Origin: a virus
Lineage: Duplodnaviria; Heunggongvirae; Uroviricota; Caudoviricetes
Strand: one strand, 5' to 3'
Length of the DNA: 64,000 nucleotides
IMG/VR virus record: IMGVR_UViG_3300046786_000604
Location: 12,364-76,363 of that record
The translations under genes and the position numbers were made by a program. Shown here piece after piece: positions 21,365-63,222 of the stretch (position 1 is its first letter; the number at the start of each line of letters is the position of its first letter). Below the pieces are notes generated by a model, which searched no databases, was not told the origin of the DNA, and saw nothing but the letters and a program-made list of their open reading frames with translations.

Positions 21365-21368
21365 TATA

Positions 21369-23519: not shown

Positions 23520-23521
23520 AA

Positions 23522-24867: not shown

Positions 24868-25142
24868 CAGATGCAGAATTTGTTAGAAAGTTTGGTATAT
24901 TATCGATGTATTATCAAGAAAAAGAACTTGATTTTTATTATGGGTTCCGGTCAGATACTCGTATAACGATTGAGATGTCAAATGTTGGGGTAGACTTGAT
25001 AAAAAACATGTGTTATCATGAGGATCAGGTGCATGATATATTACGAAAAGAACTTCATGAGAAAGACATGCGTGAGAAATATCCAGCCATACAAACTGCC
25101 TGGGATAATTATCAACTCTTATTAAAAATCGCTAATGACTGA
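24864..25142 (+). CDS. hypothetical protein
   Basis: ATGA-coupled ORF without the motif. Confidence 0.4.
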   Translation: MTDAEFVRKFGILSMYYQEKELDFYYGFRSDTRITIEMSNVGVDLIKNMCYHEDQVHDILRKELHEKDMREKYPAIQTAWDNYQLLLKIAND

Positions 25143-25389
25143 AGTTCATAAACTAATAAACAAATGTGATAAGTTTATGTTAACTTATCATAAAACCAAG
25201 TACCACGAATGGTATAGAATAGAATTAACATTACGACATCGATTCTGGACCGAAGATACCTTGATGCAAGAATATAATGACTTCTTTGGAGAGAGATCGT
25301 TGTCGGCTGGCTGGAACTATATCGATATAGAAGAAGCCAAATCAAAATATACCTGGGCAGTATTAAAATGGAACAACGATGAGACATAG
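25135..25389 (+). CDS. WF-LRWS family small protein (variant)
   Basis: ...AKSKYTWAVLKWNNDET. Confidence 0.45.
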   Translation: MTEVHKLINKCDKFMLTYHKTKYHEWYRIELTLRHRFWTEDTLMQEYNDFFGERSLSAGWNYIDIEEAKSKYTWAVLKWNNDET

Positions 25390-25627
25390 ATTCCAATGGC
25401 AGAAAGATTTATCTAATCTGCAAAAACGCTATCTGGGTGGATTTCCAAATTTAATAAGTGATGATGAGAAAATGATTCAACATGTATTGGATGAATTTAA
25501 AAAATCATATCCAGGTAATTTTTCACTTCGCTGGAAATATGATATTGATTGGGGAGTGATGGTTCTTTATCCCGAGTTTGAACGACCTGAAGAGGGAACA
25601 TTTTGGAAACTGAAATACAGCAACTAA
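25379..25627 (+). CDS. WF-LRWS family small protein (variant)
   Basis: ...EEGTFWKLKYSN. Confidence 0.45.
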   Translation: MRHRFQWQKDLSNLQKRYLGGFPNLISDDEKMIQHVLDEFKKSYPGNFSLRWKYDIDWGVMVLYPEFERPEEGTFWKLKYSN

Positions 25628-25806
25628 ACGAATATCATGGTATTCGACTAAAACAATCAATTAATGAACCACGTAAGCTTACTGAAATATTAACATGGTG
25701 TAGTGTTCAATTTGGTCCATTAAGTAAGAGGTGGTTTTTGAAAGGAAGTTATATTTATTTTAAGAATGAAGAAGATTTTACATGGTATCTATTAAAATGG
25801 GGATAA
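25603..25806 (+). CDS. WF-LRWS family small protein (TTG start?)
   Basis: LTWCSVQFGPLSKRW...FKNEEDFTWYLLKWG. Confidence 0.5.
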   Translation: METEIQQLNEYHGIRLKQSINEPRKLTEILTWCSVQFGPLSKRWFLKGSYIYFKNEEDFTWYLLKWG

Positions 25807-25807
25807 T

Positions 25808-26014
25808 ATGTTTACAGTAGTAGATAAGCATTATAACAGCTTAATGAATGATTACTGGTATCGGATAGATATATCGAATAGTGATTTAAGAAACTGGCTT
25901 GTAAAACAACCATCTAGATTATGGTGTCATATTGAATTTTCCAACTATGGTGATTCATATACCATCAATGAAGAATTATATACATTATTACAACTTACTT
26001 GGGGAGACCAATGA
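25808..26014 (+). CDS. small protein, degenerate family member
   Basis: ...NEELYTLLQLTWGDQ. Confidence 0.4.
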   Translation: MFTVVDKHYNSLMNDYWYRIDISNSDLRNWLVKQPSRLWCHIEFSNYGDSYTINEELYTLLQLTWGDQ

Positions 26015-26364
26015 AACAGCATAAACTTGTCCTTCAAGGACACTTAAACCATTACGGATTTCTATTTGGTGGAGAATTATTACGTTGGATAGATGAAACT
26101 GGATATATAGCTGTGAATTTAGAATTTCCAGGACACGAGTTTGTTACAATTGGGTTGAATCAGGTGGTATTCCATAAAAGCATTGTTTCTGGCTCAATTT
26201 TAACGTTTGATACTGCATTGGTTAAGAAAGGTAATACATCAGCAACATTTAATATAGATGTATATGCGAATACAACACCAGACATACGGTTATTTAGTAC
26301 TGAAATAACGTTTGTATCAATAGATAAAGATGGTAATAAAACACCGATTAGGGAAACAATATGA
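26011..26364 (+). CDS. acyl-CoA thioesterase, hotdog fold (YciA/4HBT-like)
   Basis: LQGHLNHYGFLFGGELLRWIDETGYIAV hotdog thioesterase signature; ATGA overlap. Confidence 0.6.
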   Translation: MKQHKLVLQGHLNHYGFLFGGELLRWIDETGYIAVNLEFPGHEFVTIGLNQVVFHKSIVSGSILTFDTALVKKGNTSATFNIDVYANTTPDIRLFSTEITFVSIDKDGNKTPIRETI

Positions 26365-26630
26365 CATTTATTCAAAAACATTTACACTACTGCTTTTTAA
26401 TGCAAGCATATGGGTTTAAATCAGCTGCTGGATATCCAGTATTAATCGATCATGAAAAATGTACTGCTAGCAAGATTGTTGGCTATGTATGTTTTGATAG
26501 TTATAACATGCCTTTAGAATGGGATCTTAATGGAAAGCCATTAAAACTACCATTACATCAGGGTCTAGGCTTAGTGCCGATTCGGAAAGTTGAAAGCTAT
26601 GAAGTTATACCGGTTGAAGAACGAGTATGA
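26361..26630 (+). CDS. hypothetical protein
   Basis: ATGA-coupled 89-aa ORF. Confidence 0.4.
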   Translation: MTFIQKHLHYCFLMQAYGFKSAAGYPVLIDHEKCTASKIVGYVCFDSYNMPLEWDLNGKPLKLPLHQGLGLVPIRKVESYEVIPVEERV

Positions 26631-26893
26631 TTGATCATGATATAGCATCGATGTATGCTTATTCTATGCCCTCTGTGATTACTAGCCTACCACCAAGTAA
26701 GCCAATCGGTGAAATCTTCATAGGTACATTAGGTGATTTTTGTGTACGTGTTAATTGGCATGAACAAGAAATGCAAGAATGGTGTATTAAAACTTATGGT
26801 AAAGATCATAATCGATGGGTCAATATTGATAGAACATTTGCATTTCATAATGAAGAAGACCGCAACTGGTTTATTTTGAGATGGAGTTCGTAA
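26627..26893 (+). CDS. WF-LRWS family small protein
   Basis: EWCIKTYGKDHNRW...FHNEEDRNWFILRWSS. Confidence 0.6.
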   Translation: MIDHDIASMYAYSMPSVITSLPPSKPIGEIFIGTLGDFCVRVNWHEQEMQEWCIKTYGKDHNRWVNIDRTFAFHNEEDRNWFILRWSS

Positions 26894-27138
26894 TGAATGA
26901 AGAAACATTAAGAAAACAATTCCCACAATTTAAACATTGTGTAGCAGTAAAGAAATCAGACATTGATGATTTGAAAATGATAGTTCGTATATCACGGTAT
27001 TTGCAAGATTATTGCAAAGCCAGGATATTAAGAGAATACAGATCATATTCTGAAAATGGATATCATTATTATTGGTTTATTGAACAAGAACCTGCAACTA
27101 AATTACAGTCATGGAAAGATCACGAGAACATTCAGTAA
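26893..27138 (+). CDS. hypothetical protein
   Basis: MNEETLRKQF...; no motif. Confidence 0.4.
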   Translation: MNEETLRKQFPQFKHCVAVKKSDIDDLKMIVRISRYLQDYCKARILREYRSYSENGYHYYWFIEQEPATKLQSWKDHENIQ

Positions 27139-27317
27139 TAATTAAGTTCAGTTATGCAAGTGAAGTAATGGCCATAATAAGAGAACTTAGAGATAACGGT
27201 TTAGTACAAGGAGACGATTTTGAATTCAAAATTGAACGACATAATGGTTCACCAACAGTCCGGTTATACTTTGATAACCCAGCCAGAGCGACGTTTTATC
27301 GTATCAAGTATGCCTGA
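27111..27317 (+). CDS. small protein, variant family member (start uncertain)
   Basis: ...NPARATFYRIKYA. Confidence 0.4.
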   Translation: MERSREHSVIIKFSYASEVMAIIRELRDNGLVQGDDFEFKIERHNGSPTVRLYFDNPARATFYRIKYA

Positions 27318-27585
27318 AGATAAATTTAAAATATTTGATAATGAAGTTTACGAGTTTAAGCCAGTAAAGACGTTAAAAATTGCTCACTTTACAACTGCGT
27401 GGGTAATAAACAATGTATATGATTGGCTTCAAAAAGAAGATGACGGCCAATGGGTTAATCAACATTGTAAGAACATTTATTTTGAAGCTAGTATTTCTCC
27501 GAAAGATTATATGTTAAATTGTCGGATAGCTGCATATATCAAACCATCCGATAATACCTTCTATCAGCTGAAATTTTCAGCTTGA
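27310..27585 (+). CDS. small protein, variant family member
   Basis: MPEDKFKIF...SDNTFYQLKFSA; stop TGA lies inside the next promoter -35. Confidence 0.4.
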   Translation: MPEDKFKIFDNEVYEFKPVKTLKIAHFTTAWVINNVYDWLQKEDDGQWVNQHCKNIYFEASISPKDYMLNCRIAAYIKPSDNTFYQLKFSA

Positions 27586-27610
27586 CACATATCTCTATAA
27601 TTGCTATAAT
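27583..27610 (+). promoter_or_regulatory. sigma70-type promoter (TTGACA-16-TATAAT) embedded in a 12-bp inverted repeat
   Basis: TTGACAcatatctctataattgcTATAAT; ATCTCTATAATT (27591..27602) and AATTATAGAGAT (27622..27633) form a perfect inverted repeat. Confidence 0.5.
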
Positions 27611-27637
27611 TTAATTTTAATAATTATAGAGATTTCA

Positions 27638-28087
27638 ATGACTACATTCTATAAAAAAGTTGGTAAAAGATACATCCCAGTATCTCAATTTGACAGCGAA
27701 TTATTAAGTGCCTATCCAAAAGGCACACATCTAACTATTTGCATACCAGGTAAATCATCACGTCGATTCAATATCGAACCAGCATTTGCTCCTATGATTG
27801 CTGCTGGCGGATATGCAGAAGAAGCGATTGCCCAAGTAATGATGGAAAAGTTATCATTATCACCACAAAAATACCCATTAACTATTGAACAAAAAAAAGC
27901 ATGGGAAAACTTTAAAGAAGTCATGGGTGAAGATAATTGTAGATTATCTAGTGGTAGTATAATGGAAGCAGTTCGTGCAGGTGTTAATGCCATGGCTGAA
28001 GAAGCCAAAGAGCTATTAGAAAACCCAGCATTACAGAATAGTTATGACAACTTTATTTTATTAAGCAAACTTACAAGAGGCAAATAA
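27638..28087 (+). CDS. hypothetical protein
   Basis: 149-aa ORF after the promoter. Confidence 0.45.
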   Translation: MTTFYKKVGKRYIPVSQFDSELLSAYPKGTHLTICIPGKSSRRFNIEPAFAPMIAAGGYAEEAIAQVMMEKLSLSPQKYPLTIEQKKAWENFKEVMGEDNCRLSSGSIMEAVRAGVNAMAEEAKELLENPALQNSYDNFILLSKLTRGK

Positions 28088-28088
28088 C

Positions 28089-34918: not shown

Positions 34919-36257
34919 CGAATAGCCATTCAGTTATTAATTTACCATCTTCATAAATATCAAATAATTCATCTTTTTTTGTATCGTCGAGTAAATCACT
35001 GTAGTATTCACCATTTTCATCTTTAAATAATGTGACCAATCCTTTTTTACTTGACTTACCTTGGTCAGTAATTGGATCTTTGAATACACCAACCCATTCA
35101 CCATTGATATAAGCAGCTGAACATTTCATTGCCCATTTGTTGGTATCACGGTCTACTTTTTGTAGTAATGCACCGCCCATGCCAAATGCTACGTTATCTG
35201 CTGAAAAGCCAGCTTTAGTGATAGCTTCTAAGATATCACGGATAGAAGTCCAATTAATACCATCACCTTGTAATACTCTTACATGGTTAAGGACTTTATA
35301 ACCTTTATTATTGATATAGAATCCAAATTGTTCTTGCAGGATTTGTAAACATTGTAGAACTACGGTAGCTGGATCACCAGAATCTGGACGGATTACAAGT
35401 GTAGCGCCACTATCAATAATGTGTTGTCTTAGTTCTTTACCCCATAATGACCGACAAGCATTAAAAATATCATAGCTATCGGAAACTACAGCAACAACTG
35501 AACCTGGTTTGGCGAACTGTTTAAGCATGTTTCTGTATGCTTCAACTTCATTTTCTTTACCCCAGCTGGTAATAGTAGAATGTTCTGCAGCTGGAACACT
35601 ATAACCAGCCATATCAGCACCATAATACTTACGGGCAAACATAAGGGCCGCCAATGTATCAGTACCTTTGAAGTTAACAAGGTGTGATGCGCCACCGATT
35701 CCGGCAGATTCTAAACTAGATACACCACGAGCGCCAAAATCATGAAGCTTAAAGTCAATTGTACTTGGATCACCAGTTTTCTCTAAGTATTGCGTAATTA
35801 ATTGTTTAATGTACCAACTTTGTGTAGCAACAGTGGTTGGATACCAAATTGCTCTTAATAATGCAGTTTCAACCCAGGTTGTTAACCAATAGCATTGTGG
35901 ATCAGTATTAACAATTGTTGCTAATACATTTCTTACAGGAATGACTGAACCTTCTTTAGCCGCTCTAATTTTTAATGGCAAGTATCCTTTGTGTTTGTCC
36001 AAGATATACTGCCAACCTTCACGATTAAATGGTACACCATGGGCTTTACAAATAGCATCCGCTTCATCGATGTCTTCTTGGGTGATTGGTTTGGATAAGA
36101 ACTCCTTAATAAAGGCTTGTAAGCCGAACATAACGGTGTGGTCATATACCCCACCACGACTTTCGATATAGCTATAAACATATTCAGTCCCAGCTGGGTA
36201 CTGTTTGAACATTGAACATTTGTATGAATCAGTATTTAAGATAATTGATAATGACAT
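34884..36257 (-). CDS. nadV: nicotinamide phosphoribosyltransferase (Nampt/NadV)
   Basis: 457 aa; NTDSYKCSMFKQYP N-terminus and conserved Nampt blocks throughout; AAGGAG RBS. Confidence 0.8.
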   Translation of the reverse strand: MSLSIILNTDSYKCSMFKQYPAGTEYVYSYIESRGGVYDHTVMFGLQAFIKEFLSKPITQEDIDEADAICKAHGVPFNREGWQYILDKHKGYLPLKIRAAKEGSVIPVRNVLATIVNTDPQCYWLTTWVETALLRAIWYPTTVATQSWYIKQLITQYLEKTGDPSTIDFKLHDFGARGVSSLESAGIGGASHLVNFKGTDTLAALMFARKYYGADMAGYSVPAAEHSTITSWGKENEVEAYRNMLKQFAKPGSVVAVVSDSYDIFNACRSLWGKELRQHIIDSGATLVIRPDSGDPATVVLQCLQILQEQFGFYINNKGYKVLNHVRVLQGDGINWTSIRDILEAITKAGFSADNVAFGMGGALLQKVDRDTNKWAMKCSAAYINGEWVGVFKDPITDQGKSSKKGLVTLFKDENGEYYSDLLDDTKKDELFDIYEDGKLITEWLFDEIREQSNNHN

Positions 36258-36356: not shown

Positions 36357-37319
36357 TTAGTCAGCATAATCATCATAATCATAATCATCATAATCATACT
36401 CGGCTTTTTCTTTATCTAATGCATTCGTCATAGCATCTATTAATACACGATAGGGTTCGTGATCATCGTTTTGGCTACCCTTACCACAGGTGGGTGTCCA
36501 TAATTTACGTGTATCCAATAGAAATCTATCCATTACACGACCTTTCAAATATTCAATAAAAAATTCAACAGCTTTATCTTCGGTATTTGCTTCCAATATT
36601 TTGATGAGTTCTGTCTTAGGAGAGAACAATGGTGATTTGTACTCCGATGCATCAAGATGAGATAACCATTCATTTGCAAAATTAAGTTCAGGTTGTCCTA
36701 ATTCATTTTTAGAAAATAAACTGATAAATGGGTCTATCCATTCTACATTTCGCATTATTGCTGGAACACTGTGGTCAGTTAATTCTTTATTCAATTTTAA
36801 ATTAGCTCGTCTGACAAATTCTGGAACATCGGATACAATGTCTGCAAATTTATATTTGACATCTGGTCTTTCATAGCCGATGTATTTCGTATAGACGGTA
36901 TTTTCCAATATATGATCAAAGATATCTTTATGGATCATTACACGTTCGACTTTGTGTTCTTTGTGATTGGTAATAAATAACCGGTCTTCATGACACGCAT
37001 CAAATAACTTTTCAACATCGAATGTATCTCGTTTAACTTCGATATCGTGATACTTGTTTTCACCAAGATCCATTTCAACTAATTTCTGTTTGATTCTATT
37101 CATAACGAAATTTAGTGCCGGACCATGACAACCCTCAGCGCCACCATAATCGTTATATTTTGCATAAAACGGAATTGGAAACAAACTATATAACGCATTG
37201 TTATAGCAAAAATCGGGTTCGTAATCTTTTACATTACGAGTTAAAAGAAATACTACCACTTCTTGTTTATCTTTGATGTGCAAATTACTAATTGCACAAG
37301 TCTCATGCCAACAGCCCAT
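36357..37319 (-). CDS. hypothetical protein with acidic DYDDYDYDDY C-terminal tail
   Basis: 320-aa ORF; C-terminus ...EYDYDDYDYDDYAD. Confidence 0.45.
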   Translation of the reverse strand: MGCWHETCAISNLHIKDKQEVVVFLLTRNVKDYEPDFCYNNALYSLFPIPFYAKYNDYGGAEGCHGPALNFVMNRIKQKLVEMDLGENKYHDIEVKRDTFDVEKLFDACHEDRLFITNHKEHKVERVMIHKDIFDHILENTVYTKYIGYERPDVKYKFADIVSDVPEFVRRANLKLNKELTDHSVPAIMRNVEWIDPFISLFSKNELGQPELNFANEWLSHLDASEYKSPLFSPKTELIKILEANTEDKAVEFFIEYLKGRVMDRFLLDTRKLWTPTCGKGSQNDDHEPYRVLIDAMTNALDKEKAEYDYDDYDYDDYAD

Positions 37320-38549: not shown

Positions 38550-39881
38550 TTACGCCAATTCTGGTATATATATGTTAATTTCTTCAAAATGAAACTTTTT
38601 CTTTGCAATTCCTTTTACCTCTAGTGATGATAAAAATCCATCACTACTATCTTTGTGTTCTATCAATGTTGCTTGTAAATCACAACCCGCGATATTTTTA
38701 AATGTGTAATCATCTAAATTTGCATCTGGGAACTTAATACTGATGTATTCACGAATTTCAGGATCAGTTAAGTATGGTAATTCCAATCTGACATCACATC
38801 GACCAGATCTTAACACAGCTGGATCGATTTTGTCAACATCATTGGTAGTCATGATGATAATATTTTCGTGTAAAGAAGAAACACCATCAATTGCATTTAA
38901 TACACCAGTCAAACTTAACATCTCATACTCACCCATTGGGTTATCGATGATCAGTTGTTTACCTGGATCAGATTTTTCTTCACCATTTGCTTTATCAACT
39001 GATTCCTGAACCCGTTGTCTTTTGGTAACTGCTTTCGATGAATCAAAATCTTCGATCAAAATAAATGAGCCTTTTTCTGATTTTGAAATAGCTGATTCAA
39101 GTGTTCTATCAGACATTGCATTGATATTGATAACGTAGATAGATCTATTGTAATGACTAGCCAATGCTTTTACCAGACTAGTTTTACCACAACCTGGGTT
39201 ACCATGTAACAGGATACCCAGTTTATATGGGATACCATTTTCAGTATACCATTGTTTATCAGCATAAAATTTTTCTATTGCAGCGGTTACGTTATTTTTG
39301 ACTGTTTTATTCAGTACAACTGATGATAATGGGCGTTTGTGAAGTTCAACACGATTTTCCCAACCTTTGCCATCCCAGTTATGAATGTAAATTGTATCGG
39401 TTGTTTTGTTTACTGGTTTGAATTCATCAACCAAATCATGAAATACAGTGTGGCTACGTCCATAAGTGGTAATCTTGATTTGTTTTCTAATTGTTTCGCC
39501 GGTATTTTCAATTTTACTCATGGTCATCCAATACAACCGTTTTTTGAAAAAGAAAAAATGATTACCGTAACTAGGACCGATTGCTAATGATGTGGCATCC
39601 CAGTTATGAGCCTGTACAAACATTGTTCTTGAGGTATTCTCATTTATATGTTTACCCGACCATGCCAGGAACGAAAAATATAAATGAAAATTAGCACCAG
39701 CATTATCTAATTCTAATGTAGTTGTACCCTGCTTATACAAAAAGTTAATAATAGTCCGAGGAATATTTTTAAGCATGTACGATAAAACTGCCAAGATCCA
39801 TGCACTTATTGCAGCAGCAACCATTTGGTTACCCGATGTCATTGAATTGATATAGGCAATTAATTCTTGAATATATGTCAT
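38550..39881 (-). CDS. membrane-anchored AAA+ ATPase, BCS1-like
   Basis: N-terminal TM helix; Walker A LLHGNPGCGKTSLVKALA, Walker B FILIEDFD; BCS1-type architecture. Confidence 0.65.
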   Translation of the reverse strand: MTYIQELIAYINSMTSGNQMVAAAISAWILAVLSYMLKNIPRTIINFLYKQGTTTLELDNAGANFHLYFSFLAWSGKHINENTSRTMFVQAHNWDATSLAIGPSYGNHFFFFKKRLYWMTMSKIENTGETIRKQIKITTYGRSHTVFHDLVDEFKPVNKTTDTIYIHNWDGKGWENRVELHKRPLSSVVLNKTVKNNVTAAIEKFYADKQWYTENGIPYKLGILLHGNPGCGKTSLVKALASHYNRSIYVININAMSDRTLESAISKSEKGSFILIEDFDSSKAVTKRQRVQESVDKANGEEKSDPGKQLIIDNPMGEYEMLSLTGVLNAIDGVSSLHENIIIMTTNDVDKIDPAVLRSGRCDVRLELPYLTDPEIREYISIKFPDANLDDYTFKNIAGCDLQATLIEHKDSSDGFLSSLEVKGIAKKKFHFEEINIYIPELA

Positions 39882-40357
39882 TTGTTTTCCACTATAATAA
39901 TTTCATTAAACCCTTCTTCAAGGGTTGGCAATTGTAATTGTGATTTCATTCTATCAATTACTTCAGGTTGTATGAATTTACCTGGTCGATTGGCTAATCT
40001 AATTGATAATTCTTCATCTGATGGGGTAGTAAAGAATACTGCAATTTTTTCATAATCATCTGATATGATTGATAATTTATCAGCACGAGATTTAACTGAT
40101 ACATTTGTTTGATCCCAAATTATATCTTTGTTATCCTCTATGTGAAAATCTAGATCTAAGAACATGATCTTAGTTGCAATTTGCACATACTTAGCCCATA
40201 CATCAGAATATGTTTTTCCTAACCGTTTAGCATATTCTTCAACTCGATCATCTGAGCTGATGATAACTGTGTTATTCCAGTCAATCTCTTGATTAATTAT
40301 CCAAGTAGATTTTCCAGAACCTGGAATCCCGATGAGCATATAGAATTTTTTTTTCAT
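39878..40357 (-). CDS. P-loop kinase, polynucleotide kinase (T4 Pnk kinase-domain)-like
   Basis: MLIGIPGSGKSTWI...ISSDD...FTTPSDEELSIRLANR; no phosphatase domain. Confidence 0.55.
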   Translation of the reverse strand: MKKKFYMLIGIPGSGKSTWIINQEIDWNNTVIISSDDRVEEYAKRLGKTYSDVWAKYVQIATKIMFLDLDFHIEDNKDIIWDQTNVSVKSRADKLSIISDDYEKIAVFFTTPSDEELSIRLANRPGKFIQPEVIDRMKSQLQLPTLEEGFNEIIIVENK

Positions 40358-40461: not shown

Positions 40462-40485
40462 ATTATAGCAGATTATATAAAACTG

Positions 40486-40489
<4 letters not shown>
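40462..40489 (-). promoter_or_regulatory. sigma70-type promoter (TTGACA-16-TATAAT)
   Basis: Minus strand TTGACAgttttatataatctgcTATAAT. Confidence 0.5.
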
Positions 40490-42345
<1,856 letters not shown>

Positions 42346-42644: not shown

Positions 42645-42953
42645 TTATCCCCATTCTTCTAGTTCGTTATTAACTTGTCTAATGAACTTTAAATTAGAAA
42701 AATCAACAACTCCATTATTCCGAATAATTTCAAATGCACTACCAAATCTTACAAGTACGGATTGAGATTGTGGTTCATTTACTTTTGGTTGATAGATAGG
42801 TTCATTTGCGTATAATACCGCAGCATCCCAATCCCAAAACGATTTTCTATTTTTTGTAACAAATGTTCTGGAGGTTTTACGTTTAAAATTAGAATCGTAT
42901 ACTGTTGAGGTTACGATTTTAATACCCAATTGCTTAGCAAGTGTTTTGTTCAT
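42645..42953 (-). CDS. hypothetical protein
   Basis: 102-aa ORF. Confidence 0.4.
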   Translation of the reverse strand: MNKTLAKQLGIKIVTSTVYDSNFKRKTSRTFVTKNRKSFWDWDAAVLYANEPIYQPKVNEPQSQSVLVRFGSAFEIIRNNGVVDFSNLKFIRQVNNELEEWG

Positions 42954-43398
42954 TATTGTCCCCTAACCATTCTTTAAATTCCTTTAAATCTTCTGGTGAT
43001 AATTTTCGATAACCGTATAACGCTGGTTTCGAATAAGTAGAATCAAGTGGTTCATATTTATAACAAATCATATCGCGATGCAAGTTCATGTCCACTACTT
43101 TAACCCATTCGCCAAAATGTGTTTCGATATTACCTAATGTATTCCAATAAGGTGCAACATATGTATTATGCATTTTCTCCATGATTGATTTAGTGTATTC
43201 GATATGTTCTCGTATACACTTAATAGAAGCTTCTTTGTAATCATCGGGATGTTCAGAAGCCATCATATCTAAAATCAACGAATTATCATTTGCAATAATT
43301 CGTTGCATTGCATACATCAGCGATTCTGCTTCGTTATCATCTAAGATAAAATCAAAATGTACTGCCATTAGTTGTTCTCCACAAAGAATGCATGACAA
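42934..43398 (-). CDS. hypothetical protein
   Basis: 154-aa ORF. Confidence 0.4.
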   Translation of the reverse strand: MSCILCGEQLMAVHFDFILDDNEAESLMYAMQRIIANDNSLILDMMASEHPDDYKEASIKCIREHIEYTKSIMEKMHNTYVAPYWNTLGNIETHFGEWVKVVDMNLHRDMICYKYEPLDSTYSKPALYGYRKLSPEDLKEFKEWLGDNNEQNTC

Positions 43399-43435: not shown

Positions 43436-44350
43436 TCATTTATTATTCCAGGTTTGTGAAAGTTCGTACAATTGTAACGCCATTTCCTCAATATTGTCAA
43501 GCATTGTTAATTTATTACGCCAGTCTGTTGGAATACCATCGATACCATAATATGCACCGGCTAATTGTCCACAAATTGCAGCAGTGGTATCAGCGTCATC
43601 GCCAAGATTGGCAGCTTTTAAGATTGCATCTCTAAAGTTATCAGTAGTATAAAAACACCATAATGCTGCTTCTAATGATTCAACTACATACCCAGACCCT
43701 TTGATATCATCTACAGTCTTATCAAAATAACTGCCTTTGGCAATTTCAACAATTTTTGGATGACCAGTAAAATTAAGCTGGTTTTGAATGATGTCATGTT
43801 TTGATTCACCTTTTAACGCATCTGCAATCATTCTTGAATACAACCTACAGGCATCAATTGATTCTGATACATTATGAGTATATTCTGAATTAATGATGGA
43901 TAAATCATCGAGTTCATTGGTATCAAGATATGCCAGCATTGGAATTGGTGCCAATCTCATTAATGCACCATTTCCAGCAGACCATCCATCTGTACCACCC
44001 GAACAGGTATCACCAGTTTGTTGGTATCGTTTTAATGCTTGTTTAGTGGTGTTGCCAATATCAAAACAACGTCCATTACTAGACATATACCCATTATCCA
44101 TCCAATCACAAAACTTGTTCATGATATCGTCTGATTGGATACCTTGGTGTTCAATAATACTAGCGGCTAAGCATAATGCCATTGAAGTGTCATCAGTCCA
44201 TTGACCTATTTGTAGACAGAACGGTCCTCCGCCTACCATATCGGTTAGCGGAGTAAATTCTCCACGTTCTTTGAACTCAACTGTAGTACCAACTGCATCA
44301 CCAGCTGCTAATCCCACTAGACATCCTAGAAATCTATTTTGGATCTTCAT
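43436..44350 (-). CDS. ADP-ribosylglycohydrolase (ARH/DraG family)
   Basis: MKIQNRFLGCLVGLAAGDAVGTTVEF...GQWTDDTSMALCLA; ARH family signatures; start set at the internal Met. Confidence 0.7.
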   Translation of the reverse strand: MKIQNRFLGCLVGLAAGDAVGTTVEFKERGEFTPLTDMVGGGPFCLQIGQWTDDTSMALCLAASIIEHQGIQSDDIMNKFCDWMDNGYMSSNGRCFDIGNTTKQALKRYQQTGDTCSGGTDGWSAGNGALMRLAPIPMLAYLDTNELDDLSIINSEYTHNVSESIDACRLYSRMIADALKGESKHDIIQNQLNFTGHPKIVEIAKGSYFDKTVDDIKGSGYVVESLEAALWCFYTTDNFRDAILKAANLGDDADTTAAICGQLAGAYYGIDGIPTDWRNKLTMLDNIEEMALQLYELSQTWNNK

Positions 44351-44651
44351 TTTTGGTATTTTCCTTAATAATGTTATGAATTGCGGTAGCATGTTCGTCA
44401 AGTTTTTGGCGTAGTTCTTTATCACCGATCCAATCGATTTTCTTTCTCAGTTTATCGAGATGCTTGAAAAGTTTTTCTTCTAAATGTTTATCAATTTTTT
44501 TAGCCATCATAATTGTCTCTTTTGTTGGTCCAGCCATTACACCACCTTGAAAGTCCAGTGTTTCGGCATCTGTAAGTCTTTTAGCAAATACATTGCGACT
44601 TGATTCGCAATATTCTAGCATTGTTTTGTGTATATCAGTTGAATCGTTCAT
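44334..44651 (-). CDS. hypothetical protein
   Basis: 105-aa ORF. Confidence 0.4.
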   Translation of the reverse strand: MNDSTDIHKTMLEYCESSRNVFAKRLTDAETLDFQGGVMAGPTKETIMMAKKIDKHLEEKLFKHLDKLRKKIDWIGDKELRQKLDEHATAIHNIIKENTKNEDPK

Positions 44652-45024
44652 GATTTTCTTCTTTCAATGCAAGCCATGTTTCGTATTCTGGGGTATATAT
44701 CAATTGTTTATTTTCGAGAATAGTTCTACGTTCTTGATCGGTTTTAGCTAACCAGCAGTTTACTATATCATGACTACCCCATGCTTCGGTTGGCATTTCG
44801 AATTCGATCCATTTAGCCGCGCATTTAAGGTGTTCAATTCTGTTTGCTACATGACTGCATAACATTGCTTGTATAAAGTCATTTTCAAAAATTGCTCTCC
44901 AAAAACTACCAGGCTCAAGCCCGTACACTAGATAATTGTATAACGGGTGTAGGTTTTCACCGCTCACGCCAGAATGTCTAAATGATTGAAGTAATCGTTC
45001 TTTACTATGATTTGATAGTTTCAT
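44635..45024 (-). CDS. hypothetical protein
   Basis: 129-aa ORF. Confidence 0.4.
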   Translation of the reverse strand: MKLSNHSKERLLQSFRHSGVSGENLHPLYNYLVYGLEPGSFWRAIFENDFIQAMLCSHVANRIEHLKCAAKWIEFEMPTEAWGSHDIVNCWLAKTDQERRTILENKQLIYTPEYETWLALKEENHERFN

Positions 45025-50655: not shown

Positions 50656-50831
50656 CTCAATACAAACCAGGTATATTCTTCTTCACTCAAACTGTGTCTG
50701 GGATAACTATTATAATCATTTTGATAAGTCTTAAACCCTTGTGAAATAAAAGATTCATGCCACCCAATAATATCATCCGTTGCATCAATGAATTTTGGGA
50801 AATCATATGTATCAAACTTTATTCTTTTCAT
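50646..50831 (-). CDS. WF-LRWS family small protein
   Basis: ...LSEEEYTWFVLRWS. Confidence 0.55.
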   Translation of the reverse strand: MKRIKFDTYDFPKFIDATDDIIGWHESFISQGFKTYQNDYNSYPRHSLSEEEYTWFVLRWS

Positions 50832-51070
50832 GACCACCTCAACACAAACCAAGTGTAATAAGCTTCATTTTCAAATACGATTCTATCAAATTCTATCTCT
50901 CTGAGTGATTCATCATCATATAATTCATAGGCTTTAAATTGGGCAAATGCATCTTCCATATTATCAAAATATTCGTCAGCAGATATAGAATCATCCCTCG
51001 ACCCACAACCTCTTGTAAAATTTTCACATACTTCGTCAGGCATATCAGTCCATTTAATAATAAAATTCAT
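50828..51070 (-). CDS. WF-LRWS family small protein
   Basis: ...FENEAYYTWFVLRWS. Confidence 0.55.
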   Translation of the reverse strand: MNFIIKWTDMPDEVCENFTRGCGSRDDSISADEYFDNMEDAFAQFKAYELYDDESLREIEFDRIVFENEAYYTWFVLRWS

Positions 51071-51282
51071 TAACTCCACCTCATTATGAACCAAGTCTTA
51101 TATTCTTCGCCTTCAAATGCAATATGAGTGTGAACGTGTTTAGATACACTTATAATTTTTGGATCTAAACTTTTAATGAAAACAAGCCAATCACTGCTAC
51201 AATTATGGTTACCGCTCTGTTTAAACAACTTAAACAGCTTACGTTCGAGTTCAGATGTATGTTTGATTACAAGTTCATTCAT
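51070..51282 (-). CDS. WF-LRWS family small protein
   Basis: ...FEGEEYKTWFIMRWS. Confidence 0.55.
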   Translation of the reverse strand: MNELVIKHTSELERKLFKLFKQSGNHNCSSDWLVFIKSLDPKIISVSKHVHTHIAFEGEEYKTWFIMRWS

Positions 51283-52633: not shown

Positions 52634-53299
52634 TTACTCTTTAGATAATGCACCTAACAACTTTAACAAGTCTAAGAAAAGATTGATAAAGTCAAGATAC
52701 AATGATAATGCACCCATTACTTCAAGGTTAGTATTGCTACCATATCGCAATGATTCTTGAATATTTTGTGCATCATATGCAGTGAATCCTAAGAAGATAA
52801 TTACGCCAATTGCCGATAATGCCATATCTAATACACTATTACCAATAAACAAGTTGATAATACTAACGATAATCAATGCAATCAATCCAACTATTAAAAA
52901 TCCACCAATAGATGTTAGATCTCGATTAGTTGTCATACCATAAATTGCCATAGTGGTAAACAATACCGTTGCACCCAAGAACGCACTGGTAATCAACCCA
53001 GCACTATATTGATGAAAGATCACCGACATAGAAATACCAAATGTAATTGCAAATAGCTGTAATAAACCATGTGCTACAATGGGCGATTCATTTGACTGTA
53101 AGATAAAATAGAATCCAAAGACCATTGCCAATGGTGCTAAAAGAACTACCCATTTCATTGCACCTGTTAAAAAGAATGCAGTTAATGTTGGACTTTGGCT
53201 AACGATATACGCTACTACCATAGTAGTGAATACTGATAAGGCCATATTACGATAAACTCTGGCCATTGCGCCAGCTTGTGTTGCTACATAAGTTGTCAT
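52634..53299 (-). CDS. Bax-inhibitor-1/YccA-family membrane protein
   Basis: 7 predicted TM helices; C-terminus LSLYLDFINLFLDLLKLLG matches the BI-1/YccA signature. Confidence 0.6.
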   Translation of the reverse strand: MTTYVATQAGAMARVYRNMALSVFTTMVVAYIVSQSPTLTAFFLTGAMKWVVLLAPLAMVFGFYFILQSNESPIVAHGLLQLFAITFGISMSVIFHQYSAGLITSAFLGATVLFTTMAIYGMTTNRDLTSIGGFLIVGLIALIIVSIINLFIGNSVLDMALSAIGVIIFLGFTAYDAQNIQESLRYGSNTNLEVMGALSLYLDFINLFLDLLKLLGALSKE

Positions 53300-55020: not shown

Positions 55021-55259
55021 TCTAAGTACTCCGAAAATTTAAGTATAAACCATGTTCGGCTTTCTTCTGAATTAAAGCAAAACGTTCTTACAGTTCCAGC
55101 AGGTGTCCATTCCAAATAATACTTATAGGTACGGAAATTTTTCTTACACCAGACCCGCATTACTGATATTGTCATAATGTCAGCTGAAATAAATTCCAAG
55201 CCATATAAACAATCACGAAAGATAACGAATGAACTGGTATTGATAGTTGTTAATTTCAT
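55017..55259 (-). CDS. WF-LRWS family small protein
   Basis: ...FNSEESRTWFILKFSEYLE. Confidence 0.5.
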   Translation of the reverse strand: MKLTTINTSSFVIFRDCLYGLEFISADIMTISVMRVWCKKNFRTYKYYLEWTPAGTVRTFCFNSEESRTWFILKFSEYLE

Positions 55260-55504
55260 GAGTATTTCAACATAAACCAGGTTGCTTTTGAATCATCAAA
55301 AAATTCTAAATATGATTCTTCGCATTCTTTATCATCCACCTTAACAGCACCTGCTAATTTTAGTTCTTTTTTTATGATGATAGAACGACCTTCTGAAAAT
55401 TTGCCTGGTTCTAATTTTAACCGAGTATCAACATCTTTGATGAAATTCTGCCACCAGCTTGGTTGACTTTCTAAAAATTGATCGTATTCTAAATATAATT
55501 TCAT
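55256..55504 (-). CDS. WF-LRWS family small protein (variant)
   Basis: ...FDDSKATWFMLKYS. Confidence 0.5.
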   Translation of the reverse strand: MKLYLEYDQFLESQPSWWQNFIKDVDTRLKLEPGKFSEGRSIIIKKELKLAGAVKVDDKECEESYLEFFDDSKATWFMLKYS

Positions 55505-55704
55505 GACCACCTCAATATAAACCAAGTCTTATGTTCATCACTCTTAAAGGTAATATGAGTAATGCTATCCACACCCTCAACATTAATGATATTCTCATCA
55601 AGTGATAGAATAAACTGAAACCACGAACTAGTGGTAGAATTAAAAAAATGTTTCGTAATAGTTTTATCTAATGAACTATCAACTTTTAAATATAAAACAC
55701 TCAT
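55501..55704 (-). CDS. WF-LRWS family small protein
   Basis: ...ITFKSDEHKTWFILRWS. Confidence 0.55.
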   Translation of the reverse strand: MSVLYLKVDSSLDKTITKHFFNSTTSSWFQFILSLDENIINVEGVDSITHITFKSDEHKTWFILRWS

Positions 55705-55904
55705 GACCACCTCAAAATAAACCAAGTCTTATGTTCATCACTCTTGAAGGTAATCCGAGTGAAGCCTTTCATGTCCTCAACTTTAATAATATTTGGATCT
55801 AAACTTTTGACAAACGCAACCCATTGTGGATGTTGGTTTGCATTATAAAACAGTTGTGTTATGTTATGGTCTAATGTACCTTCTTTTAAATCTAGAACGC
55901 TCAT
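55701..55904 (-). CDS. WF-LRWS family small protein (tandem duplicate of previous)
   Basis: ...ITFKSDEHKTWFILRWS; same length, about 60% identical to its neighbour. Confidence 0.55.
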   Translation of the reverse strand: MSVLDLKEGTLDHNITQLFYNANQHPQWVAFVKSLDPNIIKVEDMKGFTRITFKSDEHKTWFILRWS

Positions 55905-56113
55905 GACCACCTCAATATAAACCAAATACGATCTGCTTCGTTGTCAAAATAAAAACGATTGAACAATGATGTAAATTGGCTACCAAATTGGTCTTTACAC
56001 CATAGCTCCATTTCTTGTTGATTTGTGTTTCGTATTTCATCATGAGTACGAAGAACGGCAGCACCAAATTTAAATTCAAACATAAACCCTGAATCGAAAA
56101 TTTCTATGATCAT
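55901..56113 (-). CDS. WF-LRWS family small protein
   Basis: ELWCKDQFGSQF...FDNEADRIWFILRWS. Confidence 0.55.
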   Translation of the reverse strand: MIIEIFDSGFMFEFKFGAAVLRTHDEIRNTNQQEMELWCKDQFGSQFTSLFNRFYFDNEADRIWFILRWS

Positions 56114-59460: not shown

Positions 59461-60477
59461 TTAGTTGCCTAAGAAATGTTGAATGATAGAATAATGATCT
59501 TCGAAGCAATTTTCACTTTGTAATTGCGATATAGGAATCCATGTTGCAGTTTTTGCATCATCAGCGCCTTTTACTTTTTCAAGAGGACCTTCTGGCAATT
59601 CAATATAGAATGCATGGGTAATGGTTCTGCCTCTAAACGATCTACCTGGGTGATCAAATACATGGCTTGCTTTAATGCTGCCTTTTAATACTGGCACTGG
59701 AACTTTAATTTTAGTTTCTTCTTTCAGCTCTCGAACTGCACCATCGATGATCAATTCATTTTGATCCAAGAATCCACCTGGCAATGCCATTAGACCTTTA
59801 CCTGGCAAGCATTTACGTTCAATCATTAATACATGTCCCGATTGAATTACGCAGCAATCCACAGTAACAAATACTGGAGGATATGCTAAACCAGCAAATT
59901 GCTGTTTATACTTGGCGATGAATTCTTTCTCATCTAGGATAGCATTGTATTCATCGGTACCATGAAATTGGTTTAAGAACGACAATGTATCATCAGGTAC
60001 CACACCTTTGATATAATCTTGGTTATATGGAGTTTTAAAATACAACTCACGAATGTCAGTGGCATTTAATTGGTTCTGTACATTATCGAATTCTTCTAAA
60101 GCCCATTGTGGAAATAGTTTTAGGTAGTAGGTTTCTGGACCTTTATTATGCCCAAGTAAACAAACACTTTGACCATGTGTACATTCAGCAACAATGCGTT
60201 GGACATTGATCGCCCAAACCTGATCATTATAAGGAATATCCACTAATGGTTCGATATAAACCTGAACGGCTGGTTCGATTTTAATTGAACGTAAGATCAT
60301 CCCACAACGTTCACTGAATGTAAATGGATTCTTAAATGTTCTTGGTTGTTTGGATGAGCCAAGCAAGATAATGACATTTTTTGCCAATTCTGCTGCTCTA
60401 TTGATTAGTTCTAAATGAGCGTTGTGAAGAGGTTGCGCTCTCATGATTACTACTGCATTGTCATATTTTTTGTTCAT
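59461..60477 (-). CDS. natV: bifunctional nicotinamide-mononucleotide adenylyltransferase / Nudix ADP-ribose pyrophosphatase (NadM-Nudix, NatV-like)
   Basis: N-terminus AVVIMRAQPLHNAHLELI ((H/T)xGH nucleotidyltransferase motif); C-terminal Nudix box GGFLDQNELIIDGAVRELKEETKI. Confidence 0.75.
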   Translation of the reverse strand: MNKKYDNAVVIMRAQPLHNAHLELINRAAELAKNVIILLGSSKQPRTFKNPFTFSERCGMILRSIKIEPAVQVYIEPLVDIPYNDQVWAINVQRIVAECTHGQSVCLLGHNKGPETYYLKLFPQWALEEFDNVQNQLNATDIRELYFKTPYNQDYIKGVVPDDTLSFLNQFHGTDEYNAILDEKEFIAKYKQQFAGLAYPPVFVTVDCCVIQSGHVLMIERKCLPGKGLMALPGGFLDQNELIIDGAVRELKEETKIKVPVPVLKGSIKASHVFDHPGRSFRGRTITHAFYIELPEGPLEKVKGADDAKTATWIPISQLQSENCFEDHYSIIQHFLGN

Positions 60478-60525: not shown

Positions 60526-60553
60526 ATTATATCAGATTACTGTTACTTGTCAA
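60526..60553 (-). promoter_or_regulatory. sigma70-type promoter (TTGACA-16-TATAAT) with conserved 5'UTR cassette
   Basis: Minus strand TTGACAagtaacagtaatctgaTATAAT then aataaagatagactttattaaatttaactataggagttatagtATG. Confidence 0.55.
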
Positions 60554-61259
60554 CAATTTTAACTTTATAACCAAGTAATTGTTCAATTTCTTCAATGGAC
60601 ATATCTTTAATGGTTACTCTTTTATCAAACTTTTCTTTTGTTGTATATTCTACACCATTGACATAATAATATTTAAGACATCCAGCAGCCAATACAAGAG
60701 CAGGTCCGTCCTCTCTATGTCGTTTACCATTAACGATGTATTCATAATTTCCGTTACGATAGATTCGTGCAGGTCCATCCTCATTATGAAGAATTCCATT
60801 ACGATACCATTCTGTATTACCACGTGCTTCATATAATGCAGGACCGCCATCTCTATGAATTACACCATTGACATAATATGTATAACTACCGTCTGATTTT
60901 TCGACAGCTGGTCCATCTGTTCTATGTAATTTGCCATTTAAATACCATTCTTTTTCGCCAGAGGCATATTCAATAGCAGGACCATCTTCGCGATGTAAAG
61001 TGTCATTGACATAATATGTAATTATGTCATTTATTTTTAATGCTGGTCCATCTGTTCTATGTAATTTGCCATTGACATAATATGCATAATTACCGGCTGC
61101 ATTATAATTAGCTGGACCATCTTCGCGATGAGGAATTTTATCTAAAAACCAATTGGTTGTGTTTATTTCATTAATGTAAACTTTAACTACACCATCTGGT
61201 AAATTTTTTGGTTTTAATTCAGAAAGCAAGTTGAATGTAAATTCTGTGATGTGTGACAT
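60543..61259 (-). CDS. MORN-variant (MORN_2-like) repeat protein, paralog 1
   Basis: About 23-aa repeats W[YW][LV]NGxLHRxDGPAxE; conserved C-terminus SIEEIEQLLGYKVKIVDK. Confidence 0.55.
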   Translation of the reverse strand: MSHITEFTFNLLSELKPKNLPDGVVKVYINEINTTNWFLDKIPHREDGPANYNAAGNYAYYVNGKLHRTDGPALKINDIITYYVNDTLHREDGPAIEYASGEKEWYLNGKLHRTDGPAVEKSDGSYTYYVNGVIHRDGGPALYEARGNTEWYRNGILHNEDGPARIYRNGNYEYIVNGKRHREDGPALVLAAGCLKYYYVNGVEYTTKEKFDKRVTIKDMSIEEIEQLLGYKVKIVDK

Positions 61260-61315
61260 ACTATAACTCCTATAGTTAAATTTAATAAAGTCTATCTTTA
61301 TTATTATAATGGCAA

Positions 61316-61615
61316 TTATAATTCCATATATCGACTTCCAACAAATTCTAACATGTCATCATTAATTATTCCTTTCACTCCCAGATATATCATAATCGCA
61401 AATGGGTACATAGATTCTACAACTTCGTTATTTGTTATCTTACCATATAACTCTGGGTTGGGACTGAGAGATCTGAATTGTTTTCTCTCTAATTCTGTGC
61501 CGACTGGCTTTGGAAAATTCTCTGTCAAGTACGAGATTAATTGTTTGATGTTGTGTTTATTATTGGTGGCTATGGCATTATCCATTAGTTGCAACGATTG
61601 TTCAAACTTATTCAT
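61316..61615 (-). CDS. hypothetical protein
   Basis: 99-aa ORF with the conserved UTR cassette upstream. Confidence 0.4.
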   Translation of the reverse strand: MNKFEQSLQLMDNAIATNNKHNIKQLISYLTENFPKPVGTELERKQFRSLSPNPELYGKITNNEVVESMYPFAIMIYLGVKGIINDDMLEFVGSRYMEL

Positions 61616-61661
61616 ATTAATTCCTATAGTTAAATTTAATAAAGTCTATCTTTATTTGTGT

Positions 61662-61689
61662 ATTATATCAGATCACTGTTACTTGTCAA
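61662..61689 (-). promoter_or_regulatory. sigma70-type promoter (TTGACA-16-TATAAT), duplicate of 60526..60553
   Basis: Minus strand TTGACAagtaacagtgatctgaTATAAT plus the same UTR. Confidence 0.55.
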
Positions 61690-62257
61690 CAATTTTAATT
61701 TTATATCCAAGTAATTGTTCAATTTCAGCTACTGATAGCTCTTTACATTGGGTCATTTGGTTGAATTCTTGTTCTGAATATTGCTTGCCATTTAAAAACC
61801 ATCTTTTATGACCATTACGGTATTCAATTGCTGGTCCATCTACTCGATGTAGTTGATCATTTAAAAACCATTCTTTACAACCATCTGACCATTCGATAGC
61901 AGGTCCATCTTCACGATGGCATAATCCATTTAAATACCATCGTTTAAGGCCATTAGGATGTTCAATTGCTGGGCCATCGTTTCTATGGCGATTGTCATTT
62001 AAATACCATTGTTTTTCTCCATTGGCACATTCAATTGCTGGACCATCTTCTCTATGTAATCGTCCATTCAAATACCATCTTTTATCACCATCAACTCTTT
62101 CAATAGCTGGGCCATCTTCTCGATGTAATTGACCATTTACCCACCAGGATTTAGTACCGCCGATATATTCAACAGCTGGCCCGTCTTCTCGGTGTAAGTA
62201 ACCGTTAAGATGCCATTCTGTTCTATCTTCGTAAACTTGAACTGTATATTCGATCAT
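61679..62257 (-). CDS. MORN-variant repeat protein, paralog 2
   Basis: MIEYTVQVYEDRTEWHLNG... 6 repeats; C-terminus ELSVAEIEQLLGYKIKIVDK. Confidence 0.55.
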   Translation of the reverse strand: MIEYTVQVYEDRTEWHLNGYLHREDGPAVEYIGGTKSWWVNGQLHREDGPAIERVDGDKRWYLNGRLHREDGPAIECANGEKQWYLNDNRHRNDGPAIEHPNGLKRWYLNGLCHREDGPAIEWSDGCKEWFLNDQLHRVDGPAIEYRNGHKRWFLNGKQYSEQEFNQMTQCKELSVAEIEQLLGYKIKIVDK

Positions 62258-62685
62258 TTTACAATTTTAACCTTATATCCAAGTAATTGTTCAATTTCAG
62301 CTACTGATAGCTCTTTAGTTTGGGTCATTTGGTTGAATTCTTGTTCTGTGTATGCCTTGTCATTCACCCACCATTCTTTATTGCCAGTGAAAAATTCAAT
62401 AGCTGGGCCATCAATTCTATGACGTTGACCATTTACCCACCATGCTTTATTACCCCATTCAACAGCAGGACCATCTGTTCTATGACGTTTATCATTCACC
62501 CACCATTCTTTATGGCCATTGGGATATTCGATAGCAGGGCCATCTTCTCGATGTAACTTGCCATTTAAATACCATTCTTTGTAACCATTCTCAAATTCAA
62601 CAGCTGGTCCATCTTCTCGATGTAATTTGCCATTTAAATACCATTCGGTTCTATCTCTGTCAACTCGTACTGTGTACTCGATCAT
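62254..62685 (-). CDS. MORN-variant repeat protein, paralog 3
   Basis: MIEYTVRVDRDRTEWYLNG...; ATGA-coupled. Confidence 0.55.
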   Translation of the reverse strand: MIEYTVRVDRDRTEWYLNGKLHREDGPAVEFENGYKEWYLNGKLHREDGPAIEYPNGHKEWWVNDKRHRTDGPAVEWGNKAWWVNGQRHRIDGPAIEFFTGNKEWWVNDKAYTEQEFNQMTQTKELSVAEIEQLLGYKVKIVK

Positions 62686-63188: not shown

Positions 63189-63222
63189 GTTGTGTCTCAC
63201 GGTGTTGTGTTAAGTTATGTGT

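Follow-up and report, generated by a model that had tools for sequence, protein, structure and literature searches.

A stand-alone DraG/Tri1-type ADP-ribosyl hydrolase in a T4-like freshwater phage, possibly an orphan eraser of arginine ADP-ribosylation

The 64,000-nucleotide stretch of viral DNA analysed here (the window; positions 12,364 to 76,363 of IMG/VR record IMGVR_UViG_3300046786_000604) encodes, on its minus strand at 43436–44350, a 304-aa stand-alone ADP-ribosyl hydrolase (ARH) of the DraG/Tri1 type. Profile matches and aligned residues make it very likely that the protein is an ARH-family hydrolase with an intact dimetal site, and its predicted substrate is, on balance, arginine-ADP-ribosylated protein. 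Taken as a whole, we tentatively read the gene as encoding a mono-ADP-ribosyl hydrolase of the DraG/Tri1 branch that acts as an orphan counter-defence eraser, a reading that we consider quite possible while stopping just short of calling it probable. The counter-defence purpose, which is drawn by analogy with erasers of other phages, is the more doubtful part of it.

The window ARH is an ordinary member of a known enzyme family. It matches Pfam PF03747 (ADP_ribosyl_GH) with E=7e-78 (262.6 bits against a 26.2-bit cutoff), residues 9–275 spanning profile positions 1–286 of 287, and PHROG 6572 (‘ADP-ribosylglycohydrolase’) with E=1.7e-83. Its top sequence match in the PDB is Tri1 of Serratia proteamaculans (6DRE, E=3e-71), and the next solved structures are a Thermus ADP-ribosylglycohydrolase (2CWC), Listeria Lmo0067 (8ZA7) and DraG (2WOC/3G9D), with ARH3 and ARH1 far behind; those with a known role, Lmo0067 (described in an ‘ART-ARH toxin effector-immunity pair’, where ART stands for ADP-ribosyltransferase) and DraG, are like Tri1 ART-paired erasers of arginine-ADP-ribose. 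From 47 aligned homologues AlphaFold2 gave a model (pLDDT 94.6, pTM 0.94) with the all-alpha ARH fold and 15 helices, and Foldseek places it on the Tri1 hydrolase domain with a TM-score of 0.94 and a root mean square deviation of 1.2 Å, its leading matches being Tri1, Thermus 2CWC, Lmo0067, DraG and ARH3. The ARH/DraG-family assignment, proposed in an initial annotation of this gene, is thus borne out by Pfam, PHROG and PDB matches as well as by the predicted model.

That annotation had also pointed to the binuclear-metal site, with missing catalytic acidic residues as the observation that would count against the assignment, and every metal and catalytic residue of DraG proves to be present. 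The predicted set comprises D18, E25, T52, D53, D54, D97, N127, H159, D252, D254 and T255. In HMMER and MAFFT alignments, E25, T52-D53-D54, D97 and D252-A-D254-T255 correspond to DraG E28, T59-D60-D61, D97 and D243-A-D245-T246, the D97 column being fixed unambiguously by the DraG D97N crystal variant 2WOE, and the dimetal and catalytic positions are invariant across the alignment (n=47 homologues). Residues 6–297 of the window protein align to Tri1 71–360; as query residue 6 pairs with Tri1 residue 71, the N-terminal extension by which Tri1 plugs its toxin is absent.

The history of the gene among related phages suggests both sustained function and dispensability. Orthologues occur on three metagenomic contigs at 99% (L003), 84% (L007) and 80% (L005) identity, and the pairwise ratio of nonsynonymous to synonymous substitution (dN/dS) across the four phage orthologues is 0.07–0.13 with dS up to ~1.5, a sign of strong purifying selection that has long preserved the function of the gene. 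Its third-position G+C content (GC3), at 0.256, is on a par with the window mean (0.250 +/- 0.058), and such phage-like codon composition presumably reflects long residence in the phage lineage. ARH is, in this lineage, an accessory gene. The slot that it occupies is bordered on the left by its upstream neighbour p105 (44334–44651, minus strand; 105 aa), whose stop overlaps the ARH start by 17 nt and which has no Pfam, PHROG or PADLOC match, and on the right by its downstream neighbour p154 (42934–43398, minus strand; 154 aa from a TTG start, 143–144 aa in other calls), while p129 (44635–45024, minus strand; 129 aa), a protein restricted to this phage group (nine clusters), is kept upstream of the slot in all relatives. 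Sister phages (L018–L020 and L021) retain p129, p105, p154, p117 and NadV or a BCS1-like ATPase, and carry other small open reading frames (ORFs) and no ARH between p105 and p154. Because these ARH-less sisters keep the flanking genes, ARH is best described as cargo in a slot of a hypervariable region. Homologues of p105 and p154 accordingly occur in relatives both with and without ARH, and the idea that p105 and p129, which had seemed conserved with ARH, are its obligate partners was rejected when both were found to persist in the ARH-less sisters.

The translation start is taken as the ATG at 44350. A longer frame of 329 aa, opening with GTG and extending to 44425, is also open, and was set aside since identical metagenomic contigs carry independent gene calls using the ATG, since every homologue, whether from phages or bacteria, starts at the equivalent position with MK(I/T)..RF(L/R)GC, and since an AAGGA motif, a putative Shine–Dalgarno-like element read from the sequence (44362–44366, minus strand), sits 11 nt upstream of the ATG. 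A promoter and terminator scan around the gene gave counts no higher than in shuffled sequence.

Three roles had been envisaged for the enzyme in the initial annotation, namely reversal of ADP-ribosylation imposed by host defence on phage DNA, RNA or protein, recycling of ADP-ribose (ADPR) for the NAD pathway, and tuning of the phage's own ADP-ribosyltransferases. The first of these fits best, because the closest characterised relatives hydrolyse Arg-ADP-ribose and because the gene is an orphan, polymorphic for presence and absence; the part that changes is the target, which is more plausibly protein arginine than DNA or RNA. We hypothesize that bacterial ARTs belonging to defence systems, toxin–antitoxin modules or the repertoire of interbacterial toxins would mark arginines of phage proteins, or of host proteins that the phage needs, and that the ARH would strip these marks. 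As the DraG and Tri1 literature and the conservation of the residues suggest, two Mn2+/Mg2+ ions would be held by T52-D53-D54 and D252-D254-T255 and would orient the distal ribose of an ADP-ribosyl-arginine on the protein, the acid/base steps would involve E25 and D97, and water would cleave the N-glycosidic C1''-guanidinium bond to yield free ADP-ribose and the unmodified protein. Since there is no toxin-plugging extension, the action would be purely enzymatic, and the mark would be erased whichever transferase wrote it.

Characterised relatives resemble the window protein in some respects and differ from it in others. Removal of ADP-ribose from arginine is how Tri1 and Lmo0067 counter ART toxins, and DraG undoes the action of DraT (PMC8120803); the Tri1 hydrolase also reverses the marks of non-cognate toxins (PMC11606950). 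Tri1, the immunity protein to a type VI secretion system (T6SS) ART toxin, Tre1 (PDB 6DRE/6DRH; NF041672), has an arginine ADP-ribose hydrolase domain and is 44% identical to the window protein across the core, with every metal and catalytic residue in common, but the window protein is phage-encoded, lacks the N-terminal stretch of ~66 residues with which Tri1 blocks the active site of Tre1 (the inhibitory helix being Tri1 residues 27–33; PMC11606950) and has no Tre1-like or T6SS neighbour, searches of the window with Pfam, PHROGs, PADLOC and phmmer having found no Tre1-type toxin gene beside it. DraG (PDB 2WOC, 3G9D; TIGR02662), a mono-ADP-ribosyl-arginine hydrolase, has the same fold and dimetal site, whereas the window protein is only 36% identical to it and is found outside any draT/nif context, no DRAT-family gene being present in the window. 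The stand-alone bacterial ARHs and Thermus 2CWC are of the same length and likewise without the Tri1 toxin-binding extension, but are chromosomal, lie in heterogeneous neighbourhoods and are characterised only as ligand-bound Thermus structures. The closest analogues in purpose may be two T4 orphan erasers that reverse DarT marks on DNA, AdfN of the NADAR fold (PMC11825919) and the macrodomain protein AdfM (bioRxiv 10.1101/2025.11.20.689424). These too are stand-alone ADP-ribose erasers of lytic phages that undo a host toxin mark without a cognate transferase, and the stand-alone, accessory window gene may follow a similar logic; however, AdfN and AdfM have unrelated folds, act on ADP-ribosylated DNA bases and have a demonstrated function, while that of the window ARH is inferred and its target is likely protein arginine.

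The origin of the gene appears to lie outside phages. Its nearest relatives are bacterial, at 55–60% identity, and come from Chloroflexota, Cyanobacteria, Pseudomonadota, Acidobacteriota and other phyla, mostly as stand-alone genes; the best homologues in isolated phages reach 47–49% (Eneladusvirus/Asteriusvirus-like jumbo phages), and those of T4-like Cronobacter and Aeromonas phages 30–35%. A crude neighbour-joining tree gives the window clade the sampled bacterial sequences as its sister group, puts Serratia phage BF on a branch of its own and sets the Cronobacter and Aeromonas proteins far off on another. These affinities point to a bacterial gene as the ancestor of the window ARH, and as the phage homologues are at most 49% identical to it, below the bacterial ones, phages seem to have acquired ARH genes separately, several times. 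PHROG 6572 includes Serratia phage BF gp349 and proteins of Salmonella phage Munch, Xanthomonas phage XbC2 and Bacillus phage G (gp234); about 5% of jumbo phages encode an ARG domain (Iyer et al., PMC9503650). The other phage ARHs, including ‘tri1’ of Cronobacter phage LPCS28 and ORF0266 of Aeromonas phage phiAS5, have intact active sites, and those of Salmonella phage Munch and Bacillus phage G lie in contexts other than NAD genes. Unlike the window ARH, the Cronobacter and Aeromonas versions are ART-paired. In LPCS28 the ARH lies divergently beside an Alt-like ART (PHROG 802, E=3.4e-120; PF03496, 1.3e-14), and in phiAS5 it stands directly 5' of a 1183-aa protein with a weak PARP-catalytic match (6e-4), an arrangement described as an ART-ARG pair (Iyer et al., PMC9503650). 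The LPCS28 pair (NC_070937.1, L011:3883–6912) is itself unannotated, the Alt-like ART beside the annotated ‘tri1’ being the 693-aa ‘hypothetical protein’ gp125.

The neighbourhoods of the bacterial relatives give a mixed picture. Three loci were inspected individually, one with a WYL-regulator/Nudix/ARH arrangement, one with Nudix/ARH by a type I restriction system and one with ARH and a STAND NTPase, and ARG-centric conflict systems with NrtR/Nudix or WYL regulators have been predicted (Iyer et al. 2022, PMC9503650). A survey of 60 bacterial loci, which used crude longest-ORF gene calls, found NrtR/Nudix in three, WYL in at least one, a DraT-family ART in two and Tpt1 in one, with no dominant partner and no DarT-like neighbour. 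In the two loci with a transferase, which came from a pooled search of the upstream neighbours in bacterial loci L026–L104, the DRAT-family ART (PF07357, E=1.3e-97) lies immediately upstream of an ARH that is Tri1-like and not a DraG equivalog. The suggestion that the closest bacterial homologues sit in defence islands, at which the first three loci hinted, was downgraded in view of this heterogeneity.

Several observations weigh against the reading of the window ARH as an orphan arginine eraser in counter-defence. Among the 60 bacterial loci, those with an ART, Nudix or WYL neighbour are a minority, so that it is not evident that the ancestor served in immunity. The protein falls below the cutoffs of both equivalog models of its nearest characterised relatives, scoring 343.2 bits against 490 with the Tri1 model (NCBIfam NF041672), of which it covers positions 67–359 only, and 189.6 bits against 337 with the DraG model (TIGR02662), and specificity within the ARH fold (Arg, Ser, O-acetyl-ADPR or ribose-ribose bonds) is not confidently readable from sequence. 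Our literature searches found no bacterial anti-phage system that works via arginine ADP-ribosylation of proteins, and the proposed target class is therefore hypothetical. Finally, the window is 64 kb of a phage, and an ART may be encoded elsewhere in the genome.

A role in NAD metabolism is suggested first of all by position. NadV, a 457-aa nicotinamide phosphoribosyltransferase (34884–36257, minus strand; Pfam NAMPT_N and NAPRTase), lies 7.2 kb downstream of ARH, and a NatV-like nicotinamide mononucleotide adenylyltransferase (NMNAT) with a Nudix hydrolase domain (59461–60477, minus strand; Pfam CTP_transf_like and NUDIX) lies 15.1 kb upstream, both on the strand of ARH. The initial annotation had placed all three in one early region; the shared strand and the distances stand, while ‘early’ is a probable assignment deduced from a run of ~90 tightly packed small same-strand ORFs. 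ARH lies 1.7–7.2 kb upstream of NadV, on the same strand, in all four orthologous loci, and in two Eneladusvirus/Mimasvirus jumbo phages, Serratia phage BF and the Xanthomonas phage XbC2, a NadR-like NMNAT and PnuC have an independent ARH (49% identity) 3.8 kb upstream of them. The genes between ARH and NadV are, however, variable and unrelated, the distances are in kilobases and the pairing is not operon-like, and NadV persists without ARH in the sister phages. In L005 (15556–17016) and L007 (3418–4881) the syntenic NadV is only 34% identical to that of the window (486–487 versus 457 aa) despite an ARH that is 80–84% identical, flanking genes and ARH together ranging over 50–84%; it looks as though NadV has been xenologously replaced in situ between these related phages. 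Neither NadV nor NatV occurs within 10 kb of ARH in any of the best 80 other IMG/VR viral ARH loci, and six of these have NadR and PnuC nearby, all of them Eneladusvirus-like. A general linkage of ARH to NAD salvage was rejected on these counts, and no consistent co-occurrence or co-localisation with NadV and NatV, as in a ‘NARP2’-type module, was seen. Directly upstream of NadV a 320-aa protein (36357–37319, minus strand; PHROG 5960, of unknown function) is kept at 50–84% identity in L003, L005 and L018–L020, but is not conserved there in L007; a role as a so far overlooked partner in the NAD module is conceivable.

Recycling of ADPR for the NAD pathway, as originally proposed, thus has positional support only, set against the NadV of the ARH-less sisters and the 80 other loci. 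A more elaborate version, in which the enzyme is a small-molecule glycosidase that splits the ribose-ribose bond of 2'/3' cyclic ADPR (2'/3'cADPR), His-ADPR or O-acetyl-ADPR and so silences Thoeris-like signalling, the free ADPR being processed by the Nudix domain of NatV while NadV and NatV rebuild NAD+, is unlikely in our view. The conserved order of ARH and NadV in the four loci and the independent jumbo-phage arrangement would both agree with it; moreover, ARH3-type enzymes cleave ribose-ribose and O-acetyl-ADPR bonds (PMC8120803), and RyDEP, a glycosidase of another fold, adjoins NARP1 and converts cADPR signals to ADPR for NAD+ synthesis (PMC13232231). Yet the kilobases between the genes are filled by variable ORFs, NadV has been both kept without ARH and swapped for a 34%-identical version, none of the 80 other loci repeats the association, and the NadV/NatV route consumes nicotinamide and phosphoribosyl pyrophosphate, not ADPR; the window protein is also nearest to Arg-specific enzymes, ARH3 being only 20–21% identical, and viral ARG domains have been argued from phyletic patterns to prefer macromolecular substrates (Iyer et al., PMC9503650). 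In its sharpest form, that of an ARH-fold glycosidase of ADPR-based immune signals (2'/3'cADPR, His-ADPR, N7-cADPR) working alongside NadV and NatV, and no protein eraser at all, we regard the idea as more improbable still; if true, it would account for the occurrence of ARH a few kilobases from NAD-salvage genes in two unrelated phage lineages, and would be a second enzyme fold, after the RyR-domain RyDEP, by which phages destroy TIR/Thoeris signals. Equally hard to credit is a nucleic-acid eraser that would remove ADP-ribose from phage DNA or RNA marked by DarT-like or CmdT-like toxins, an orphan ARH-fold antitoxin like DarG3 of DarHTG. Phages do carry orphan erasers against DarT, as AdfN and AdfM show, and a DarT-family system with the ARH3-like-fold antitoxin DarG3 has been reported (PMC13069673), but the close characterised relatives all act on protein arginine, ARH-family enzymes are inactive or nearly so on base-linked U-ADPr (PMC13036486), no PADLOC defence model matches the window protein, and the surveyed bacterial loci lack any DarT-like neighbour.

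The enzyme might instead answer to a transferase of the phage itself. Self-control of a phage ART (Alt/Mod-like or other, encoded outside the window), which could shield the producing cell at a late stage of infection or make the choice of targets more exact, has its models in the Alt-like ART beside ARH in Cronobacter T4-like phages, in the 1183-aa weak-PARP protein that follows ARH in the Aeromonas T4-like phage and in the prophage toxin Bxa with its ARH immunity protein BAH (PMC11699363). These ART-linked phage ARHs are nevertheless only 30–35% identical to the window protein and sit on a separate branch. Within the 64 kb we detected no ART, and no macrodomain, NADAR or sirtuin, by Pfam, PHROGs, PADLOC or phmmer, in sequence-based searches that took all ORFs of at least 85 aa as concatenated pseudo-proteins, together with large ORFs without assignment, against Pfam and PHROGs, and used the Cronobacter Alt-like and Aeromonas PARP-like proteins as phmmer queries. 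In sequence searches, which remote ART folds could escape, p105, p129 and p154 beside ARH gave no ART signature, and they vary or persist independently of ARH; no ART-sized neighbour of ARH is conserved at any of the four orthologous loci, and the sister phages dispense with ARH altogether. The window phage, moreover, resembles T4-like cyanophages by its 581-aa virion protein (most like that of S-RIM32, 50%). T4-like cyanophages are not known to carry alt, modA or modB. The proposal that the enzyme tunes the phage's own Alt, ModA or ModB therefore finds little footing, with no ART in the window and ART–ARH pairing only among homologues at 30–35% identity, and self-control of a phage ART in general seems to us rather improbable. 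Less probable again is an auxiliary metabolic role in which ARH reactivates host enzymes silenced by the host's own arginine ADP-ribosylation, as in DraT-type nitrogenase regulation or similar, so that metabolism would continue through infection. DraG is a relative at 36% identity, a DRAT-family gene stands immediately upstream in the two bacterial loci noted above, and metabolic genes abound in the window (aminotransferase, epimerase, NadV, NatV and seryl-tRNA synthetase); against this, the DraG equivalog score is 190 bits with a cutoff of 337 bits, and a gene that comes and goes in a hypervariable slot is more often one of conflict than a core metabolic helper.

The carrier is an uncultured T4-like, cyanophage-related freshwater phage. 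Several ORFs match virion structural, head-decoration and baseplate-hub/lysozyme PHROGs, so that the window is phage DNA; it holds ~160 mostly small, tightly packed ORFs in three strand blocks, and a tRNA scan of it found none. Neither a megablast of the locus nor a tblastn search with an 824-aa window protein returned a near-identical isolate from 50,697 phage records, and the relatives of this phage are known from metagenome assemblies only.

Beyond ARH, the same region carries other genes that some relatives lack. A BCS1-like AAA+ ATPase (38550–39881, minus strand; BCS1_N and AAA) is missing in L003 but has a 96% identical counterpart in the ARH-less L021, with a second AAA protein after it, and is a further piece of mobile cargo here. 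A complete seryl-tRNA synthetase gene (40836–42110, minus strand; Seryl_tRNA_N and class II core) has a GC3 of 0.438 against the window mean of 0.25, and is absent from L003, the relative with the 99% identical ARH; at the equivalent place L005 has a different class II aminoacyl-tRNA synthetase with an HGTP anticodon-binding domain. Between these two genes, upstream of an AAA_33 kinase-like gene (39878–40357), stands a perfect sigma-70 consensus promoter (40462–40489, minus strand; TTGACA, 16-nt spacer, TG-extended TATAAT, 12/12); across the region, promoter-like matches are no more numerous than in shuffled sequence.

Two groups of paralogues also stand out in the window. The larger comprises 26 of the ~160 ORFs (70–159 aa), which share a C-terminal motif, approximately F..E(E/A)...WFxLRWS, at their very end and have no Pfam or PHROG match as a family. 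These small proteins are encoded at 16894–29075 on the plus strand and at 34013–34918, 50828–51282 and 55256–56113 on the minus strand, four of them directly adjoining NadV. One 159-aa member (18439–18918, plus strand) includes a segment like the N-terminus of gp23, the T4 major capsid protein (PF07068, 3.3e-10; PHROG 138), and may be a capsid-targeting protein or a chimeric fragment. The second group, beside NatV (60543–63200, minus strand), consists of four tandem paralogues of 4–7 MORN-like repeats, W(Y/W)xNGxxHRxDGPA, with a common ...ELSVAEIEQLLGYK(I/V)K(I/V)V tail at the end of each. Other genes on the minus strand encode a Bax1-inhibitor-like membrane protein (52634–53299), a Band7/SPFH lipoprotein (31574–32422), an NS-type DNA/RNA endonuclease that seems, by eye, to have a signal-like segment at its N-terminus (8345–9160), an AlgH-like DUF179 protein (10137–10685) and two adjoining N6-adenine methylase-like proteins (12698–14429), and a class I/II aminotransferase is encoded on the plus strand (7093–8289).

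The stand-alone ADP-ribosylation erasers so far known from phages are built on two folds, the NADAR fold of AdfN and the macrodomain of AdfM, both acting on DarT marks on DNA. ARH/DraG is the third classical eraser fold; phage copies have already been catalogued (in the PHROG family and by Iyer et al., PMC9503650), and the literature that we searched held no phage ARH outside an ART pair with an assigned function or target. The window ARH offers a clean test case, with its intact site, lack of an extension and of a partner transferase, purifying selection and naturally occurring sister phages with and without the gene. Should it prove protective against an arginine-specific ART, it would indicate a kind of anti-phage defence based on protein arginine ADP-ribosylation, of which the searched literature holds no report; should it act on small ADPR signals, it would be a new anti-Thoeris enzyme; and if neither holds, it would be an ordinary accessory gene.

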